From positions 156,955-220,954 of the forward strand of contig CAYZNK010000002.1 of assembly GCA_964479955.1 (NCBI GenBank): a stretch of DNA of 64,000 bases, written 5' to 3'. The position numbers were made by a program, and so were the translations under genes. This DNA comes from an uncultured Candidatus Saccharibacteria bacterium (GTDB lineage: Bacteria > Patescibacteriota > Minisyncoccia > Minisyncoccales > Staskawiczbacteraceae). Shown in pieces: positions 3,981 through 35,066 of this stretch (positions are counted from its first letter, which is position 1; every line of letters begins with the position of its first letter). The notes beneath the pieces are model-generated. The model was not told where the DNA came from. It made no database searches and saw only the letters and a program-made list of their open reading frames with translations.

Positions 3981-4583
3981 ATGGCAAATAAAAAATATTA
4001 TGCATATTCAATAGGCAAAGAGCGGGGGATTGTTGACAGTTGGGCGGAATGCGAAAGAATTGTTTCTGGCGTACCTGGGGCAAAATACAAAGGGTTTGTA
4101 ATACAGGAACAGGCGGAAGAATGGCTGGATGCGGGAGCTGATTATAATATAAAGCACATAGGGTTGGAACCTGGTATTTATTTTGATGCGGGCACGGGAG
4201 CGGGCAATGGCGTTGAAATTAGTGTAACAGATGAAAAAGCAAACAGCCTATTACATAAAGTAATGCCTGAAAAAAATATTAATAACAGGGGTTTTTTTCT
4301 TATTCCCGAAGATGTCACCAATAATTACGGAGAATTGCTTGCCTGCAAATATGCGCTGGAAATAGCCATAAATGAAAAAGCAAAAAAAGTGTTTGGCGAC
4401 AGTAAATTAATTATTGAATACTGGTCAAGAGGATTTTTAAAAAAAGACAATGTTTCTGAAAAAACCGCCCAATTGGCAAATATGGTAAAAAAGCTAAGGA
4501 AAAAGTTTGAAGGCCATGGAGGAGCAATGATATTGATTTCAGGTTCAAATAATCCTGCTGATTTGGGTTTTCATAAAGGATAA
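3981..4583 (+). CDS. RNase H1-like protein with N-terminal hybrid-binding (viroplasmin-type) domain
   Basis: KYYAYSIGKERGIVDSWAECERIVSGVPGAKYKGF hybrid-binding domain; RNase H-like core NNYGELLACKYALE, GDSKLIIEYW, C-terminal NPADLGFHKG. Confidence 0.75.
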   Translation: MANKKYYAYSIGKERGIVDSWAECERIVSGVPGAKYKGFVIQEQAEEWLDAGADYNIKHIGLEPGIYFDAGTGAGNGVEISVTDEKANSLLHKVMPEKNINNRGFFLIPEDVTNNYGELLACKYALEIAINEKAKKVFGDSKLIIEYWSRGFLKKDNVSEKTAQLANMVKKLRKKFEGHGGAMILISGSNNPADLGFHKG

Positions 4584-6026: not shown

Positions 6027-6189
6027 TAATATATAGGGATAAAATAAGAAAATACGAAATTAAATATAAAATATTCAGATATGTTTAACTTCGTCTCTTC
6101 TTATTTTGGGGAGAGCCTGCCAAATTCTATGCGCGTGGAATTAAAGCAGGTTTTGCACATTTAAATAAGCGCGCTTTAGGAGAAAAGCC

Positions 6190-7476
6190 ATGGAAACTAC
6201 TATGACAATCGCCCAGTTGCTGTCCGCGTTGGCTCTCGAGGGCAAAAAAGAGAACGAGGCTGTGCAGCAGCCATACGATTCAAACATGTCACCCATGGAG
6301 GCAGTAAGGGCCGCAGTTGAGCGAGCGCGTCATGTGCCAGAATATATCCAGCGTCTGGAAGCGGCGATGCCCCACATTTTGGAGTTTTACGAGTCTATCG
6401 CTGATAACAAGGTTATCTGGCCTGACGAATCTGGCGTCATCAAGGGAAAGAACTGGAAAGAGATCATGGATGAAATTCGGACGGGCCTTTACTACATTCT
6501 GGACAGCTCAAAAGATCTTAAGGCAATAAGAATTGTTTGCCTTGAATTAATAAAATACAAGTTCAGGGATGGTATTACCCAATCGCAGGCAGAAAGAGCC
6601 ATAGGTGACTGCTTTAGCAGTGGGTTCTTCGTCACAGGCAATGAAGGTGGCATAATGGTTGGCAAAAGGAGAATCATTATTTCCGACAACTTCGGTTTGA
6701 CCGATGCCGACAAAAAGGAAATCGCCTCCATTGTCCAAAAGGCTTTTGCTCCCAAAGAGAACGAGACACCCAAAAAGCCTGTGCCAGCAACCAAGCCAAA
6801 ACGCACCAACACCGACAAAATCACCATCAGAGAGGCATGGAAGGGAAACGTAGGAATATTTGAGCTCCAGATTCCTACTGCAGAGGGGACCAAACTCCTA
6901 AAGATGCAGTCGGTAGACTCGGTAGGGGGTGTGGTTTTTGTGCTTCTTAGCGCCTTCAACGGGCTTAAGGACATAGAGGGGCAGAGCATTCCACTTTCCG
7001 CCCTTAAGGACAGAAACGGAAAAGTGAATCAGGATCATATAGGCGTTGTTTTTCCAGAAAACCAGACAGAAACGCAAAAAGAGAGAATAACAAGGCTGGG
7101 GCTGACCCTGCTTAAGGGTTTTCAATTCGCCCTTGAAGAGCGGCACGATATTGACCCCAAAGAGTTCTTTACCACAGATGTGGTCGGAGACTCTGTTCTT
7201 ACTTATAGGGGGACATTTGAGTGGCGCCCCAATAATGATGATTCTGAGGATAGAGATTTTGAAGACCTCACTCTCAGATTCCATCGTGGAAACGATGAAA
7301 AAATTACTCTCACTGAGATTCTTTCAGAAGAAGCAATGGGTTTTCAAGTCCTCAAAACCGCCGTGGGAAAAAGCTGCTCACCAGGACAAGCGTTTAAGAC
7401 TATGAAGCCGTTTTTCTGTCGGCTGTTTCTCCAGGCGACCTATGGGCAAGTTGTCCAAAGACGCTACGAGAACTAA
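6190..7476 (+). CDS. hypothetical protein (GC-rich ORFan, 428 aa)
   Basis: Long ORF in a visibly GC-rich block. AGGAG lies 7 nt upstream of the ATG. Lys/Pro-rich linker PKKPVPATKPKR. No domain recognised. Confidence 0.8.
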   Translation: METTMTIAQLLSALALEGKKENEAVQQPYDSNMSPMEAVRAAVERARHVPEYIQRLEAAMPHILEFYESIADNKVIWPDESGVIKGKNWKEIMDEIRTGLYYILDSSKDLKAIRIVCLELIKYKFRDGITQSQAERAIGDCFSSGFFVTGNEGGIMVGKRRIIISDNFGLTDADKKEIASIVQKAFAPKENETPKKPVPATKPKRTNTDKITIREAWKGNVGIFELQIPTAEGTKLLKMQSVDSVGGVVFVLLSAFNGLKDIEGQSIPLSALKDRNGKVNQDHIGVVFPENQTETQKERITRLGLTLLKGFQFALEERHDIDPKEFFTTDVVGDSVLTYRGTFEWRPNNDDSEDRDFEDLTLRFHRGNDEKITLTEILSEEAMGFQVLKTAVGKSCSPGQAFKTMKPFFCRLFLQATYGQVVQRRYEN

Positions 7477-11667: not shown

Positions 11668-11680
11668 ATTGTGCGACAAA
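11668..11680 (+). repeat. ATTGTGCGAC-word copy (forward)
   Basis: ATTGTGCGACAAA, intergenic, 46 nt upstream of ATG 11726. Confidence 0.8.
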
Positions 11681-15413: not shown

Positions 15414-15496
15414 TATAAATAATCAGCATATTATTGTGCTGATAGAATTGCTGTGAGAAGCAGAGTACCCCGCAACGGTCCAAGGAGACCCTAATT

Positions 15497-15547
15497 ATGA
15501 ATGTGTTCAGCCGAATGAACGCCGTCGAGGTCGCGGAGAAGAACTGA
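15497..15547 (+). CDS. micro-ORF (16 aa) with strong SD
   Basis: AAGGAG lies 9 nt upstream of the ATG; MNVFSRMNAVEVAEKN then stop. Own reading, below the ORF-track cutoff. Confidence 0.3.
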   Translation: MNVFSRMNAVEVAEKN

Positions 15548-15558
15548 AGCCGCCGAAG

Positions 15559-15601
15559 CACCGACAGAGGGATTCAATCCCTCTGTCGGTGGGAATTTTT
15601 T
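15559..15601 (+). terminator. intrinsic terminator
   Basis: A 14-bp stem CACCGACAGAGGGA-ttcaa-TCCCTCTGTCGGTG, followed by GGGAATTTTTT. Confidence 0.85.
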
Positions 15602-15674
15602 GGGGTTGTAGCTCACACCGGGAGAGCGTCCGCCAACTGGCGGAAGGCTGCGGGTTCAAATCCTGCCAACTCCA
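15602..15674 (+). tRNA. atypical tRNA-like gene (Ala-type acceptor with G3:U70 and A73; 6-nt anticodon loop)
   Basis: GGGGTTG/CAACTCC acceptor, D-arm GCTC-ACACCGGGA-GAGC, T-arm GCGGG-TTCAAAT-CCTGC. The anticodon stem TCCGC/GCGGA encloses only CAACTG, with no U33, so no anticodon can be assigned. Confidence 0.6.
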
Positions 15675-15788
15675 CTTTGCACATTATCAACTTAATACAT
15701 CCAAAATCAACTTCTTTTCTGAAACTCCAAAAACCCAATAATAAACTAGGCTTAGGCAACCACCCAAGTCTTTTTTATTGGTTTTTAG

Positions 15789-21491: not shown

Positions 21492-21905
21492 ATGGCAAAA
21501 AGACAAAACGCTGCCCGCAAGCGCAGAAACCCAATCGTAACAGCAAAGGTAAACGAAGCAAGTCTGGAATCTGTTTTGAGACACGCCCAAAAAGAGAATA
21601 AGAGACTAACGGAAGAAATAGATAGGCTAAAATGTTTTAAACAAGGACTTGAGACATCTCACAATGGAGCCTTGGCTAAGTGTCTTGATATGGAAGAAAG
21701 GTGCGCCAAATTGGAGGAAGACAAGAGGGCAGTTGAGATAGCACTTGAAAATATAAATGCTAAGCTCTGTGCGGTCACTGAACTATATGAAGACGCACAG
21801 AATAAGCTTGCCAAAAAAGCAATGGAACTTCTCAAAAGCGAGGGTGCTGTTAGCGCCCTGGGCGGACAAATCGACAGGATGTTCGCGAAGCTGATCGCTA
21901 AGTGA
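21492..21905 (+). CDS. hypothetical coiled-coil protein (137 aa, GC-richer cassette)
   Basis: AGGAG lies 8 nt upstream of the ATG. Basic N-terminus AKRQNAARKRRNP followed by heptad-like helices. Confidence 0.65.
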   Translation: MAKRQNAARKRRNPIVTAKVNEASLESVLRHAQKENKRLTEEIDRLKCFKQGLETSHNGALAKCLDMEERCAKLEEDKRAVEIALENINAKLCAVTELYEDAQNKLAKKAMELLKSEGAVSALGGQIDRMFAKLIAK

Positions 21906-21919
21906 ATGCTACGCGAAAC

Positions 21920-21947
21920 GCGGAGAACCAAAAACCTCCGCTTTTTT
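21920..21947 (+). terminator. intrinsic terminator
   Basis: GCGGAG-aaccaaaaac-CTCCGC followed by TTTTTT. Confidence 0.8.
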
Positions 21948-21967
21948 ATTGCTTGGAGTTTGTTGAA

Positions 21968-23110
21968 ATGATAAAATATACTGTTAAGCAACAAAAATTT
22001 ATGATAACAAAAGGAATTGCAACATTTGGATTGGATTACGGAAAATGCCCAAAGTGGCTTTTTGACAGAATGGTTTTGCTCTCAAAAAGAATGATTTATG
22101 CAATAATCGCAGAAGAAGGTCCCGACGAATTTATAAAAAGGATTTCTAACCCCGTTTGGTTTCAGTCTCTGGGAACTGTCCTGGCTTTTGACTGGAATGC
22201 TTCCGGGCTTACAACAATTCTTACAGCCGCTTTAAAAGAGGCAATAAGGGGCTCTGAAAAAGATTTGGGAATTTTTATTTGCGGGGGAAAAGGCAAAACA
22301 TCTTTGAAAACTCCAGATGAAATTTTAAACTGGTCTTATAAAATCTCTTTACCCGAAAAATCAGCTAATTCTTTGGTTTATAATTCTAAAATGGCAGCCA
22401 AGGTTGACAGCTCGCTGGTTCAAGACGGATTTCAAATTTACCACCATGCTTTTTTCTTTTCAAAAAACGGAGCATGGACGGTTGTCCAGCAGGGAATGAA
22501 CGCAAAGGAGCAGTCTGCCAGAAGATATCACTGGCACTCAAAGGAGTTAAAAGACTTAATTAAAGAACCGCACTCGGGCATTGAAAGCGCGGTAAAATTG
22601 AAAAATGTTCTAAATATGACGGCCCAAGAAAGCGACAAAAACAGGGAACTAAGCAAATCCCTTGTTTTGGAACAAGGATTTAATTCTTTAATGAAAGACA
22701 TAACTCTTTTAAGAAAATATTATACGCCATTGTCGCAGACAATCACAATTAAAAACCAAAAAGAGCAGCTGACCCTGCTTAATTTAGAGACAAAAGAGTT
22801 TCATTGGCATCCGGTTGTAACGGAAAACTTTGCCAAGAGCAAATATTTGGAAAAAATTTTATGGAAGCTGTGCGACCAAAAGCCGGAAAACTATGAAAAA
22901 CTATTGGCAACGCCCGGAGTGGGCCCCAAAACAATAAGGGCGTTAGCTTTGGTTGCAGAAGTTATTTATGGAGCCAAACCTTCATACCAAGACCCCGCTA
23001 GATATTCTTTTGCGCACGGAGGCAAAGACGCAACTCCTTACCCCGTTGACCGCCAGACCTATGACCAAACAATAGACAAACTAAGAGGATTTTTAAGACA
23101 AAAACCTTGA
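21968..23110 (+). CDS. DUF763-family protein
   Basis: ATPGVGPKTIRALALVAEVIYGAKPSYQDPARYSFAHGGKDATPYPVD is typical of DUF763. Start placed after the terminator (ATG 21968; ATG 22001 is also possible). Confidence 0.75.
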   Translation: MIKYTVKQQKFMITKGIATFGLDYGKCPKWLFDRMVLLSKRMIYAIIAEEGPDEFIKRISNPVWFQSLGTVLAFDWNASGLTTILTAALKEAIRGSEKDLGIFICGGKGKTSLKTPDEILNWSYKISLPEKSANSLVYNSKMAAKVDSSLVQDGFQIYHHAFFFSKNGAWTVVQQGMNAKEQSARRYHWHSKELKDLIKEPHSGIESAVKLKNVLNMTAQESDKNRELSKSLVLEQGFNSLMKDITLLRKYYTPLSQTITIKNQKEQLTLLNLETKEFHWHPVVTENFAKSKYLEKILWKLCDQKPENYEKLLATPGVGPKTIRALALVAEVIYGAKPSYQDPARYSFAHGGKDATPYPVDRQTYDQTIDKLRGFLRQKP

Positions 23111-23165: not shown

Positions 23166-23236
23166 GGGCCCATAGTAAAACGGCATTACGGATCCATGGC
23201 ATGGATTAGGTCCGGGTTCGATTCCCGGTGGGTCCA
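23166..23236 (+). tRNA. tRNA-Ala (anticodon GGC)
   Basis: Acceptor GGGCCCA/TGGGTCC with G3:U70, anticodon loop ATGGCAT, T-arm CCGGG-TTCGATT-CCCGG, discriminator A. Confidence 0.85.
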
Positions 23237-23245
23237 CAGATAAAA

Positions 23246-23271
23246 ATACGGCGCTAAATGCCGTATTTTTT
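23246..23271 (+). terminator. intrinsic terminator
   Basis: ATACGGC-gctaaat-GCCGTAT followed by TTTTT. Confidence 0.8.
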
Positions 23272-23275
23272 ATTG

Positions 23276-23306
23276 CCTGCCTGTCCGGCAGGCAGGTGCG
23301 ACAAAT
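23276..23306 (+). repeat. CCTGCCTG/CAGGCAGG hairpin plus partial ATTGTGCGAC-word copy
   Basis: CCTGCCTG-tccgg-CAGGCAGG is the same hairpin family as 20823-20841. It is followed by GTGCGACAAAT (23296-23306, forward). Confidence 0.6.
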
Positions 23307-23338
23307 AATTACTGTGTGGAATATTTTATTAGTCTGGA

Positions 23339-23367
23339 TTGACAAGGGTTTATATATATGATAAGAT
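23339..23367 (+). promoter_or_regulatory. sigma70-type promoter of the orphan RNA
   Basis: TTGACA (23339-23344), 17-nt spacer, TAAGAT (23362-23367). Same -10 as the hrcA promoter. Confidence 0.6.
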
Positions 23368-23373
23368 AAATTA

Positions 23374-23782
23374 TAGGGAGGATATTTCATCCTCTTTGCA
23401 CTTTTACCGTCGGTGAGCTGTTATACAACACAATACAGCGCAACTGACAGAAATGGGGACCCCCGACATGCGTAATCCGACTCAACAGCAGCTTCTAAAG
23501 TAGTTGAAGCCATCGGGCACGGCCACGACGACGGCCCTGTTCGCGCTTCGCTGACGACTTCGCGCCGGCCCCGCGAACAAACAGCCATCCGACACAGAAA
23601 GGGAGAAGAACCAATGACCCCGTATAAACACCCACCGTAGGTGGGTTCCGTAGCGTAAGCGGGTTTGAGGCACTCGGGATTGCGGCAATGGCACCTCCGA
23701 TCCCCAACGATAGCCATTTGCCGCCAGGGAGCAGCAAGAACCAAGTTTTAACAAACGAAGTTCTTGTTGCTCCGTTTTTTTT
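23374..23782 (+). ncRNA. unclassified GC-rich structured RNA (about 400 nt)
   Basis: Bounded by the promoter and a 13-bp-stem terminator (23729-23782). The plus strand is full of stops. Helices at 23378/23389, 23539/23572, 23630/23641 and 23682/23713. Only spurious antisense ORFs overlap it. Confidence 0.55.
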
Positions 23783-23802
23783 GCTTGATTTTGGAAAAAC
23801 TC

Positions 23803-23831
23803 TTGACTTAATTATTGGCTTTTGATAACAT
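23803..23831 (+). promoter_or_regulatory. sigma70-type promoter
   Basis: TTGACT (23803-23808), 17-nt spacer, TGaTAACAT (-10 at 23826-23831). Confidence 0.45.
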
Positions 23832-23874
23832 TGTAAATAATAAATTAACAACTTCTTTTTTCACGGAGGAAATT

Positions 23875-24075
23875 ATGCCATTATACTGGCTTGCACTGAT
23901 TTTGGTGATTCTCTTCTTTTTGACGGTTCATTGTGGACCGCTAAAAAAGCGTGAAATCCGCGAGTGCTACGGCTGCATCCGCGGAAATGGGAAAGCAACC
24001 CGCAACATGTTGACGCCAAAGATTGTGAGGTGCAAAAAGCCTGTAGCGGGGTGCCTGGTTGGTGGCACCTTATAA
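23875..24075 (+). CDS. small Cys-rich membrane peptide (66 aa)
   Basis: GGAGG lies 7 nt upstream of ATG 23875. MPLYWLALILVILFFLTVHCGPLKKREIRECYGCIRGNGKATRNMLTPKIVRCKKPVAGCLVGGTL has one TM helix and 6 Cys. Confidence 0.5.
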   Translation: MPLYWLALILVILFFLTVHCGPLKKREIRECYGCIRGNGKATRNMLTPKIVRCKKPVAGCLVGGTL

Positions 24076-24227
24076 AGCGCGAGACAGTGCTGATATCAAA
24101 AAGCAAAAAGAATACAGCCCCGTAAGGACGCAACCGTCGCAAGGGGGAAAGCCATGAGACATTGGTATCTGGACACTTTCTGATTTCTGCTCTGCTTTCG
24201 GGCGCAACCAACTCACTTCTTTACCAT

Positions 24228-24261
24228 GGGCAAGCCCTTTTAGGACTTGCCCTCTTTTTTT
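24228..24261 (+). terminator. intrinsic terminator
   Basis: GGGCAAG-(11 nt)-CTTGCCC followed by TCTTTTTTT. About 150 nt downstream of the peptide stop. Confidence 0.8.
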
Positions 24262-24339
24262 ATATGAAAATTCAAAAATTCATTGCTTTGCATTGTTTTT
24301 TTTGGTATAAATAGTTTAATATATTTTTAATTTAAAATA

Positions 24340-25542
24340 ATGGACATAAAATATTTTTTTGATAAATATAAAAATAAAATAATTTTTCCTGTTGCGCTGT
24401 TTTTATGTTTTGCAATTATTTTTGCATTGGGGTATTGGGCAGGAGATAAAATGTCTTACTGCGTGCATCAGCCCGGGACAATTGATTTTTCTCTTTTTTG
24501 GGACGCTTATAACAAGCTTAAACAAAACTATATAAATCCAGGCGATATAAATGACGAAAAAATTATTTACGGTGCAATTGAGGGGATGACAAATTCCTTG
24601 AACGACCCGTATACTGCTTTTTTTAATCCAACCGAAGCAAAAAAATTTCAGGATGACCTTTCTGGTTCTTTTGAAGGAATTGGAGTTGAAATTGGCATTA
24701 AAAAAGACCAGCTAGCTGTTATAGCTCCTCTTAAAAACACTCCCGGCGAAAAAGCCGGCTTAAAATCCGGAGATATTATTACCCAAATTGACGGAAAAAG
24801 CACCGCGAATATGACTACAGATAACGCCGTTGATATAATAAGAGGCAAAAGAGGGACAACTGTAACTTTAACAATTTACAGAGAAGGCTGGAAGGACACA
24901 AAAGATATAGATATAATAAGGGATAAAATAGTGATACCTTCGATGAATTGGAAAATCATTGAAGGAGACGTGGCGTATATAGAAATCTATCAATTTGGAG
25001 ACACATTGTTAAGTGATTTTAATTCTGCCGCAAACCAGATACTGCAAAGCGGAGTAAAGAAAATAGTGCTGGATTTAAGAAACAATCCGGGAGGATACTT
25101 AGAAACAGCCAGAAAAATCGCCAGCTACTTTTTATCACCAGACCAAACCGTTGTAATTGAAGATTTTGGAGAAGGAAAAGAGCAGACAATCTACAAGACA
25201 GACGGCAACCACATTCTGCTAAAATATCCCTTGGCTGTTTTGATAAATCAGGGTTCTGCGTCTGCTTCTGAAATTTTGGCAGGAGCTTTAAGAGACAACA
25301 GGGGAATAAAACTGATTGGAGAGAAGTCTTTTGGAAAAGGATCTGTCCAGGAAGTTATCTACTTAAAAGGCAACTCATTTCTTAAGGTTACCATTGCAAA
25401 ATGGCTTACCCCGAACGGCTCATCCATTTCAGAAGTTGGGTTGGAGCCGGACATAAAAGTTGAAGTTAAAAATTCCGATACTGAAACAGAAAAAGACCTC
25501 CAGCTTGAGAAGGCACTTGAAATTATAAACGACTTAAAGTAA
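24340..25542 (+). CDS. S41-family C-terminal processing peptidase
   Basis: N-terminal TM helix, PDZ domain (GIGVEIG...PGEKAGLKSGDIITQIDG), DLRNNPGGYL, GSASASEILAGAL. Confidence 0.9.
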   Translation: MDIKYFFDKYKNKIIFPVALFLCFAIIFALGYWAGDKMSYCVHQPGTIDFSLFWDAYNKLKQNYINPGDINDEKIIYGAIEGMTNSLNDPYTAFFNPTEAKKFQDDLSGSFEGIGVEIGIKKDQLAVIAPLKNTPGEKAGLKSGDIITQIDGKSTANMTTDNAVDIIRGKRGTTVTLTIYREGWKDTKDIDIIRDKIVIPSMNWKIIEGDVAYIEIYQFGDTLLSDFNSAANQILQSGVKKIVLDLRNNPGGYLETARKIASYFLSPDQTVVIEDFGEGKEQTIYKTDGNHILLKYPLAVLINQGSASASEILAGALRDNRGIKLIGEKSFGKGSVQEVIYLKGNSFLKVTIAKWLTPNGSSISEVGLEPDIKVEVKNSDTETEKDLQLEKALEIINDLK

Positions 25543-28995: not shown

Positions 28996-29490
28996 TTATA
29001 ATGTTTTTGCAAGAGTCTGAGCCATCTGGAACCATTTGGGTTGCCTGGGCCTGGATTTATACTTTGCAGACGACTTATGAATTTCTATTAAGGTGTTTAA
29101 ATCGTTTTTCTTCCATGTTGCAAGATATTTTCCTTTATTTTTCTGGATTACCTCAACCCCTTTTGCCCAAAGCTCAAAATCTTTTTTCTTTTTTTCCGAC
29201 AAAGGATTCTTCCTAAAAAACGGAACTACTGTCTGGGCTATGTCTCCGATTTTCTGCACAGAAAACCTTGCCTGGTCTTTTGAAATTGTAATCTGTCCGC
29301 ATCCAATTTCTTTTTGTATTTTTTCCAAAATTTTAAGACTTTCTTTTTGGCAGGTAACCACAAACTGGGCTTTCCATCTGTAATATGTGGGAGCGTTTGT
29401 CCTTTCGTGCCTTGTGTCTTTGCGAAACTGCAAATCAAAGCATCCGTCATTGTTTACAATTTTTGAAACGCTAAAAATATCCTTTGCCAT
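28996..29490 (-). CDS. free-standing LAGLIDADG-family homing endonuclease (single-motif type)
   Basis: IVNNDGCFDLQF is a degenerate LAGLIDADG motif. KILEKIQKEIGCGQITI...FSVQKIGDIAQTVVPFFRKNPL..KKKDFELW is the typical family scaffold. Confidence 0.7.
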   Translation of the reverse strand: MAKDIFSVSKIVNNDGCFDLQFRKDTRHERTNAPTYYRWKAQFVVTCQKESLKILEKIQKEIGCGQITISKDQARFSVQKIGDIAQTVVPFFRKNPLSEKKKKDFELWAKGVEVIQKNKGKYLATWKKNDLNTLIEIHKSSAKYKSRPRQPKWFQMAQTLAKTL

Positions 29491-35049: not shown

Positions 35050-35066
35050 ATTTGTCGCACAATAAA
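35050..35066 (-). repeat. ATTGTGCGAC-word copy (reverse), inverted partner of 33695-33711
   Basis: The plus strand reads ATTTGTCGCACAATAAA. Confidence 0.9.

Follow-up and report, generated by a model that had tools for sequence, protein, structure and literature searches.

The locus and its transcription units

The 64,000-nucleotide stretch of contig CAYZNK010000002.1 analysed here (the window) belongs to a Candidatus Staskawiczbacteria-like genome of the Patescibacteria, also called the Candidate Phyla Radiation (CPR), with a G+C content of about 36%. This report concerns unit 1, a plus-strand RNA gene of about 410 nucleotides (nt) at positions 23368-23782, which is about 390-640 nt long in relatives. 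Upstream of it lie, in order, grpE, dnaK, dnaJ, a tRNA-Lys gene, two small genes, a DUF763 gene (21902-23110) and a tRNA-Ala(GGC) gene (23166-23237) with its terminator, followed by a palindrome. Downstream are a second small unit, called unit 2 (23803-24262), the gene of an S41 peptidase of the Ctp type (24340-25542), L9 and CTP synthase. The neighbourhood is core genome and not an obvious mobile element. The evidence, which is comparative, supports the view that unit 1 is a structured RNA gene with transcription of its own. Its family is absent from Rfam and has a narrow range in Staskawiczbacteria-like CPR bacteria.

Relatives were represented by the DUF763 neighbourhoods of 80 GTDB species representatives and 80 metagenome contigs, in which the loci examined span only about 3-7 kb either side of DUF763. 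Single-sequence nhmmer and blastn searches found a homologue of unit 1 only in locus L081. Here the DUF763, S41 and CTP synthase genes are 94%, 91% and 95% identical to those of the window, and units 1 and 2 are 77.5% and 79% identical. A two-sequence profile weakly detected a further copy in L097. L094 (E = 2e-8) and L011 (E = 3e-6) were then picked up with a profile of the 5' part built from three sequences. Nine DUF763-based contig look-ups yielded a wider stretch of the L011 contig (L167), which contains the full unit 1 copy of L011, and no new member. The known family therefore has five members (the window, L081, L097, L094 and L011/L167), and the description of unit 1 as an orphan, given in an initial annotation made from the letters of the window, does not hold. 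A family pattern usable for exact searching is ACCGYYGGY-N20-40-RCYRRC-N0-2-AGAAAGGAGACC.

The features of unit 1 and its neighbour are listed below; all are on the plus strand. Identities are to L081, for which four-fold sites of the flanking genes (73.5% identical, 317 of 431) serve as a neutral yardstick, and free spacers are 41-45% identical. ORF stands for open reading frame, SD for Shine-Dalgarno and MFE for minimum free energy.

23339-23367, plus strand: promoter with a -35 element TTGACA, a 17-nt spacer and an extended -10 element TGATAAGAT, having TG before the hexamer; 10 of 12 in a consensus scan
23368-23417, plus strand: first 50 nt, from the 5' hairpin through the 5' arm of helix P1; 46 of 50 positions identical, above neutral
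23375-23397, plus strand: 5' hairpin AGGGAGGAU / AUCCUCUUU, predicted in the MFE fold and the two-sequence consensus and sequestering an SD-like GGGAGG
23409-23448, plus strand: helix P1 (23409-23414 / 23443-23448) enclosing P2 (23417-23421 / 23435-23439), with CAACACA in the loop; in the MFE fold of all five homologues
23449-23503, plus strand: first start module, with an SD-like element AGAAA-GGGGA(CC), AUG at 23468 and the 11-codon ORF1 (MRNPTQQQLLK-stop); in all five homologues
23463-23592, plus strand: variable G+C-rich core, 45% identical and with insertions and deletions, like a free spacer; contains hairpins such as GGCC 23521-23524 / 23533-23536
23593-23671, plus strand: conserved central block, with CGUAAGCGGGUUUGAGGC after the hairpin 23630-23636 / 23640-23646; 73 of 79 positions identical (P = 2e-5 against the 73.5% neutral rate)
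Within 23593-23671, plus strand: second start module, with the SD GGGAG (23601-23605), AUG at 23614 and the 8-codon mini-ORF2 (MTPYKHPP-stop); same peptide in L081
23672-23723, plus strand: P7 region, 51% identical, hairpin kept
23682-23724, plus strand: P7, a long hairpin GCGGCAAUGGC / GCCAUUUGCCGC; the L081 equivalent is CAGGAUGGC / GCCAUUCUG, with about three double changes by manual pairing
23724-23782, plus strand: intrinsic terminator CCAGGGAGCAGCAAGAACC...GGUUCUUGUUGCUCC followed by U8; 59 of 59 positions identical (P = 1.3e-8)
23803-24262, plus strand: unit 2, not part of the RNA; promoter TTGACT-N17-TAACAT, SD sequence, ORF of 66 amino acids (23875-24075), 3' tail and terminator

The promoter, of the sigma-70 type and near consensus, is exactly where it had been placed by inspection (TTGACA-N17-TAAGAT, 23339-23367). 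A promoter of the same type, TTGACA[A/G]GG ... TG[A/C]TAAGAT, also heads unit 1 in L081, L097 and L094; the -10 element of the L011 copy is TGATATTAT. The hairpin terminator with a T8 run, annotated earlier at 23729-23782, is also present, its arms occupying 23728-23748 and 23753-23773 and the T8 run 23775-23782, and was missed by a simple terminator scan. Equivalent terminators starting with (C)AGGG end the homologues in L097, L094 and L167.

The segment 23386-23790 is the strongest G+C peak in the window (0.63 per 150 nt against a mean of 0.36 and a standard deviation of 0.068). In agreement with the earlier reading, the plus strand is full of stops (21 stop triplets in 23339-23790) and has no substantial ORF, none of at least 30 codons being listed within the unit 1 core. 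The triplets TTA, CTA and TCA are absent from 23495-23748 (253 nt). A run of that length was found in none of 5000 dinucleotide shuffles, and the sequence 23497-23745 was free of these triplets in 3 of its 5000 shuffles. The antisense stop-free stretch pointed out previously is thus real and beyond shuffles. However, the triple antisense ORF "footprint" seen in it is not conserved, as antisense stops at positions 4459 and 4586 of L081 interrupt the run in that homologue. It is therefore a consequence of the low T content (14%) rather than of selection.

Conservation and fold of unit 1

When compared with L081, unit 1 is a mosaic. The 5' 50 nt, the central block and the terminator lie above the neutral yardstick, whereas the core has diverged in the manner of free spacers. 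The fast-evolving core nevertheless has a G+C content of 54-61% in both the window and L081, which argues that composition or structure is under selection, since neutral decay would lead toward the A+T-rich background. In the conserved blocks no class of positions is free to vary, which points to a function at the level of RNA or DNA and not to selection on codons.

The fold was examined by energy minimization and by comparison of the homologues. The MFE z-score is -3.3 for the plus strand and -2.5 for the minus strand of the window, and -3.1 for L081. The comparison shows a predicted series of hairpins, the positions of which are kept while their sequences change. The best-supported helices are P1 and P2, neither of which was among those named in the initial annotation. 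P1 has 6 base pairs; P2 has 4-6 and differs in sequence in nearly every member, and a motif of the CAAC type (CACC in L011) is present in their loop. In the alignment of the five sequences, 96.7% of the P1 cells are paired, with double changes in three of the six pairs. The P1 score was reached by 1 of 500 shuffles, and sliding the partner by 1-3 columns reduced the pairing to 0-50%. The G-U pairs of P1 are compatible with the plus strand only, and both helices also come out of RNAalifold.

Between the window and L081 there are three compensatory changes in P2, and one more converts the GGCC/GGCC hairpin of the core into GACC/GGUC. The 5' hairpin is identical in L081, giving no covariation information, and the sequence at this place is different in L097, L094 and L011. 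In the other homologues a hairpin of differing sequence around the shared CGACGNCGGCC region was seen, by eye only. The four helices proposed earlier all have their arm pairs at the coordinates given for them, and the comparison separates them. The pair GCGGCAATGGC/GCCATTTGCCGC has compensatory changes in L081 in its favour. In GAGGAT/ATCCTC and ACCCAC/GTGGGT no position differs there, so that these two carry no covariation information, whereas GTTCGCG/CGCGAAC is lost in L081, its 3' arm falling in a gap. Relatives, in which such a search had been advised, thus show both conservation and compensatory base changes, and the five members with their conserved, covarying P1 and P2 have the properties expected of a new structured-RNA family.

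The earlier statement that the RNA is not RNase P RNA, transfer-messenger RNA (tmRNA), signal recognition particle (SRP) RNA or 6S RNA is borne out by the covariance scan proposed with it. Using cmscan and Rfam 15, only four tRNAs were found in the window at gathering score, and nothing relevant in 23368-23727 at E<=10 with permissive filters; the longer L097 homologue has no Rfam match at E<=1. ARAGORN reported no tmRNA. Even at E<=10 no tmRNA match falls within 23368-23782, the sole matches to this family (8-13 bits) being on or just upstream of the neighbouring tRNA gene. The tmRNA assignment was also rejected because the mini-ORFs carry SD sequences and AUG or GUG starts, while a tag frame would be expected without them. 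RNase P RNA of type A or B has no Rfam match here, and this identity is unfitting because unit 1 is missing from the locus of most close relatives, unlike an essential RNA. For SRP and 6S RNA, which also gave no Rfam match, the MFE structure consists of local hairpins in a row rather than a rod running from end to end. A T-box leader or riboswitch was rejected in view of the lack of an Rfam match and because the unit downstream encodes a small membrane peptide and is headed by a conserved promoter. A likeness to a T-box or to the RNase P CR-V motif, seen by eye, is not supported by covariance models. The idea of a CsrA sponge was rejected, since the window copy, by a rough estimate, shows no enrichment of GGA motifs.

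A protein-coding gene was rejected as well. The three overlapping antisense ORFs contain no Pfam domain. The antisense ORF of 118 amino acids has no homologue among 5.8 billion clustered proteins, and the one of 107 amino acids has a single match among 1.84 billion representatives. That match is a translated tandem repeat, and the repetition accounts for its score. These ORFs are broken in L081, and in the conserved blocks none of the three codon positions varies.

It is highly improbable that unit 1 is a functionless remnant of G+C-rich DNA acquired horizontally at a variable cassette site beside tRNA-Ala. The central 130 nt diverge as fast as free spacers, as such a remnant would. In relatives lacking unit 1 the interval between tRNA-Ala and S41 measures 349-2300 nt, is mostly non-homologous even among close relatives and holds other small SD-led cassettes, whose strong SD sequences are unlike the leaders of host genes, or, in L010, G+C-rich protein genes. 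However, the conservation of the blocks is far above neutral, a pattern that largely excludes a remnant. The promoter and terminator are conserved, the helices covary across five genomes and the G+C richness is kept despite the turnover of sequence. No att-like direct repeat of the tRNA 3' end was found. A blastn search of phages and plasmids gave nothing meaningful and three exact-pattern scans of viral contigs gave no match. An exact pattern made from the P7 arms also had no match in metagenomes, P7 being a variable helix and hence a poor probe.

Start modules, unit 2 and the cassette site

Two modules, each consisting of an SD sequence and a start codon, occur at homologous positions in all five homologues. 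The first is directly 3' of P1 and has a GGAG-type element (GGGGA, three times GGAGA, and GGAAC in L011) 6-8 nt before the AUG, the spacer being variable. ORF1 is 10-26 codons long and its peptides are unrelated among members (those of the window and L011 were read by eye). In the second module mini-ORF2 has 4-8 codons and an AUG or GUG start, and its UAG stops, where used, lie within CGUAG. It reads MHWT-stop in L097 (by eye), MHWP-stop in L094 and MHWTTI-stop in L011/L167, the last two with a GUG start. In the window its UAG is situated in the loop of the hairpin 23630-23636 / 23640-23646. By strict criteria the five RNAs together contain 11 SD-start sites, whereas dinucleotide shuffles give an expectation of about 2.1 (summed per-RNA values). 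Only 4 of the 48 long ORFs of the window have an SD-like tetramer upstream, the usual leader being A/T-rich. Unit 1 is structured, as originally proposed, but because of these two modules it is not certain that it is purely non-coding.

These modules are evidence that unit 1 might primarily be an mRNA or leader for the two mini-ORFs. These would encode either micro-peptides or leader peptides, the translation of which would set how far transcription passes the terminator into unit 2 and S41 (attenuation mediated by the ribosome). We consider this possible, although rather unlikely. The homologous positions of the modules, kept in spite of variable spacers, and their excess over expectation favour such an mRNA, and a ribosome translating mini-ORF2 to its UAG would melt the hairpin that holds it. 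The Pro-Pro-stop ending in the window and L081 and the H-W-(T/P) peptides resemble arrest-type leaders, and unit 1 is upstream of unit 2 and S41 in four genomes. However, the peptides are not conserved: those of ORF1 are unrelated and mini-ORF2 differs between clades, while the conserved blocks are invariant even at the would-be third codon positions. Host genes do not use SD sequences. No helix was seen to rival the 5' arm of the terminator, and unit 2 and S41 keep conserved promoters of their own. In L094 the sequence after unit 1 is non-coding for about 185 nt and then contains a minus-strand ORF, with no visible unit 2.

The order unit 1 - unit 2 - S41 is found in four of the five loci, where downstream sequence exists (the window, L081, L097 and L167); the S41 protein of L097 is 75% identical to that of the window. 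Each homologue of unit 2 has a promoter, a strong SD, an ORF for a peptide with a single transmembrane (TM) segment, a structured tail and a terminator. The peptide is basic, starts in the window with the ATG at 23875 and has 56-66 amino acids across the homologues. Relative to L081 its ORF remains in frame, with 66% nucleotide and 47% amino-acid identity, and evolves at about the rate expected under neutrality. The 3' tail (24076-24227) has 89% nucleotide identity and looks like a functional RNA element in its own right. Used as protein queries, the unit 2 peptides found no homologues and no further loci.

The adjacency of an RNA gene and a small membrane peptide raises the alternative that unit 1 provides the RNA of a pair similar to type I toxin-antitoxin systems, or that it arose as a tandem paralogue of unit 2, decayed and was kept as a decoy. 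This is quite improbable. The unit 2 peptide, with its single TM segment, strong SD, highly structured mRNA and fast evolution, would suit a toxin, and the two genes are adjacent in four genomes. The units also share a layout of promoter, SD, variable centre, conserved 3' part and terminator. Of four local alignments between them only that of unit 1 of the window with unit 2 of L081 reaches significance, with a score of 44 where shuffles give at most 32, and the evidence for paralogy is inconsistent. Both units are on the same strand and there is no conserved antisense promoter, the single promoter-like site on the minus strand being apparently lost in L081, as read from the alignment. Duplex energies of cognate pairs (-28 to -37 kcal/mol) are no better than those of non-cognate pairs (-25 to -36 kcal/mol), and the predicted sites are not homologous between genomes. 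A pseudogene would not retain blocks at 92-100% identity, and protein homologues of the unit 2 peptide were not found.

The interval between tRNA-Ala(GGC) and S41 (23238-24339 in the window; also in L001, L002, L004, L010, L085, L094, L109 and L113) is a hypervariable cassette site. A TTGACAAGG-type promoter directly after tRNA-Ala heads differing payloads, including small TM ORFs, a secreted protein and non-coding RNAs. The cassettes examined in the window and its relatives have a strong SD of the GGAGG type. The tRNA-Ala gene of L002 is followed at 6179-6578 by a unit of about 370 nt that is rich in G+C and has the same TTGACAAGGGTTT promoter, a two-helix 5' stem-loop, a terminator, and an SD-N7-ATG heading a 6-codon ORF (MQTPPG-stop). 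It may be a very divergent analogue of unit 1, although no profile detected it. A different stand-alone unit is upstream of S41 in L001 (5999-6585) and L094 (2480-3200). It has an ORF of 61 amino acids with a TM segment and a 3' region of about 300 nt, in which hairpin pairing is kept through compensatory changes between L001 and L094, judged by eye. Its architecture is that of unit 2, to which it has no detectable sequence similarity.

Between the tRNA terminator and the unit 1 promoter is a perfect palindrome, GCCTGCCTGTCCGGCAGGCAGG (23276-23297), which is 97% conserved in L081; the palindrome columns also gave a profile match directly after DUF763 in L165. A repeat TTATTGTGCGACAAAT occurs throughout the genome, for example at 11670, 13725, 16125, 23295, 33700, 35114 and 35790 and, on the minus strand, at 35061, 37361, 37426 and 48813. 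Its core TGTGCGACA has 21 matches with at most one mismatch against 5.5 expected, a number reached by none of 100 shuffles. The TTATTGTGCGACAAAT copies are mostly at gene ends or beside terminators, and they also flank unit 1 in L097, L011 and L081. Possible roles of the repeat are protein binding, uptake and the marking of a boundary.

Two other places in the window deserve mention. At 15431-15675 (plus strand) there is a small G+C-rich unit that has a hairpin and a 16-codon ORF led by AAGGAGACC-N6-ATG and ends in a terminator near 15549-15598. The tRNA directly after it (15602-15675) was given a two-base anticodon, "ac", by ARAGORN, the anticodon loop being read as 6 nt; apart from this tRNA the unit has no Rfam match. 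At 28996-29490 (minus strand) a free-standing ORF of 164 amino acids for a LAGLIDADG homing endonuclease is situated between the genes for undecaprenyl-diphosphate synthase and a DNA methylase.

Proposed function and likeness to known systems

The reading that we prefer, and to which as a whole we give roughly an even chance, is that unit 1 is a riboregulator. The RNA itself, and no protein made from it, would be active. Ribosomes, or an RNA-binding factor that recognizes GGAG-type motifs, would be engaged by the conserved 5' stem-loop and the two start modules, in a host whose genes hardly use SD sequences. A riboregulator of this kind and a partner of the small protein encoded next door are the foremost ideas on its action. 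The output may concern the adjacent small membrane protein and the protease unit. It could be reached by conditional read-through of the terminator into unit 2 or by an action on the mRNA or protein of the neighbour.

Several observations weigh against this interpretation. In view of the start modules, the transcript could be nothing more than an mRNA that encodes micro-peptides. No complementarity between units 1 and 2 is conserved or specific to cognate pairs, as the duplex energies given above demonstrate. Duplex folding of unit 1 with the translation-initiation regions of the window genes was uninformative, giving long-loop artefacts. Control in cis by read-through is unproven, because unit 2 and S41 each have their own conserved promoter and no antiterminator competing for the 5' arm of the terminator was seen by eye; the sole alternative pairing read from the sequence, that of 23601-23611 with the 3' arm, is weak. 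There is no further member among about 160 other relatives within the 3-7 kb examined around DUF763, so unit 1 must be dispensable or located elsewhere in those genomes. The covariation comes from only five sequences, two of them close, and thus represents few independent events. Furthermore, MAFFT gives no single register for P2 across the five, so that this helix rests on folds of the individual sequences and manual pairing.

Several known systems resemble unit 1 in part. The OLE RNA of Firmicutes is a large, structured, G+C-rich stand-alone RNA that is encoded beside the gene of the membrane protein OapA, the pair being conserved. Unit 1 is likewise a structured, G+C-rich RNA gene of several hundred nucleotides, immediately beside a small membrane-protein gene, with which it is conserved as a pair, and with a biochemical role that is not obvious from its sequence. 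However, it has no sequence or Rfam match to OLE, it is far less conserved, it carries SD-start modules and it occurs in few CPR genomes. Its putative partner is a single-pass peptide of 61-66 amino acids and not the multi-pass OapA.

Like the dual-function small RNAs SgrS/SgrT, RNAIII/hld and SR1/SR1P, unit 1 is a stand-alone structured transcript with its own promoter and intrinsic terminator and with embedded short ORFs, the translation of which is putative. Those RNAs have conserved peptides and defined base-pairing seeds, whereas the peptides of unit 1 are not conserved and no target pairing was found. With attenuators of the trp type and of the erm/cat/ABCF type it shares very short SD-led ORFs, a stop within a hairpin and a strong terminator upstream of genes. 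It differs from leader-peptide attenuators in having 240 nt of structured region upstream of mini-ORF2 and no antiterminator identified, and the genes downstream of it have their own promoters and are neither biosynthetic nor resistance genes. The neighbouring genes for a small TM peptide and an RNA, their fast turnover and structured mRNAs with a sequestered SD are reminiscent of type I toxin-antitoxin loci. However, there is no antisense overlap or conserved complementarity, and known antitoxins are far shorter than this RNA of 410-640 nt.

A bolder reading is that unit 1 and the unit 2 peptide are a functional pair new to biology. It would be either a membrane-anchored ribonucleoprotein, in its logic similar to OLE/OapA, or an RNA engaging the ribosome or the anti-SD sequence in a lineage in which translation otherwise starts without SD sequences, and it would control cell-envelope proteolysis by the adjacent S41 peptidase in these ultra-small bacteria. 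This we consider improbable.

The Patescibacteria are tiny, uncultivated and probably symbiotic cells with reduced genomes, and to our knowledge not many functional RNAs have been described for them apart from rRNA, tRNA and those with universal housekeeping roles. Unit 1 represents a narrow family, a well-supported new candidate of moderate value and not a surprise. Although the core genes of this genome lack signals of the SD type, such signals persist in its special cassettes. The conserved RNA gene of 400-640 nt, which stays G+C-rich against the A+T bias of the genome and is paired with a small membrane-protein gene upstream of an envelope protease, points to a lineage-specific regulatory module.

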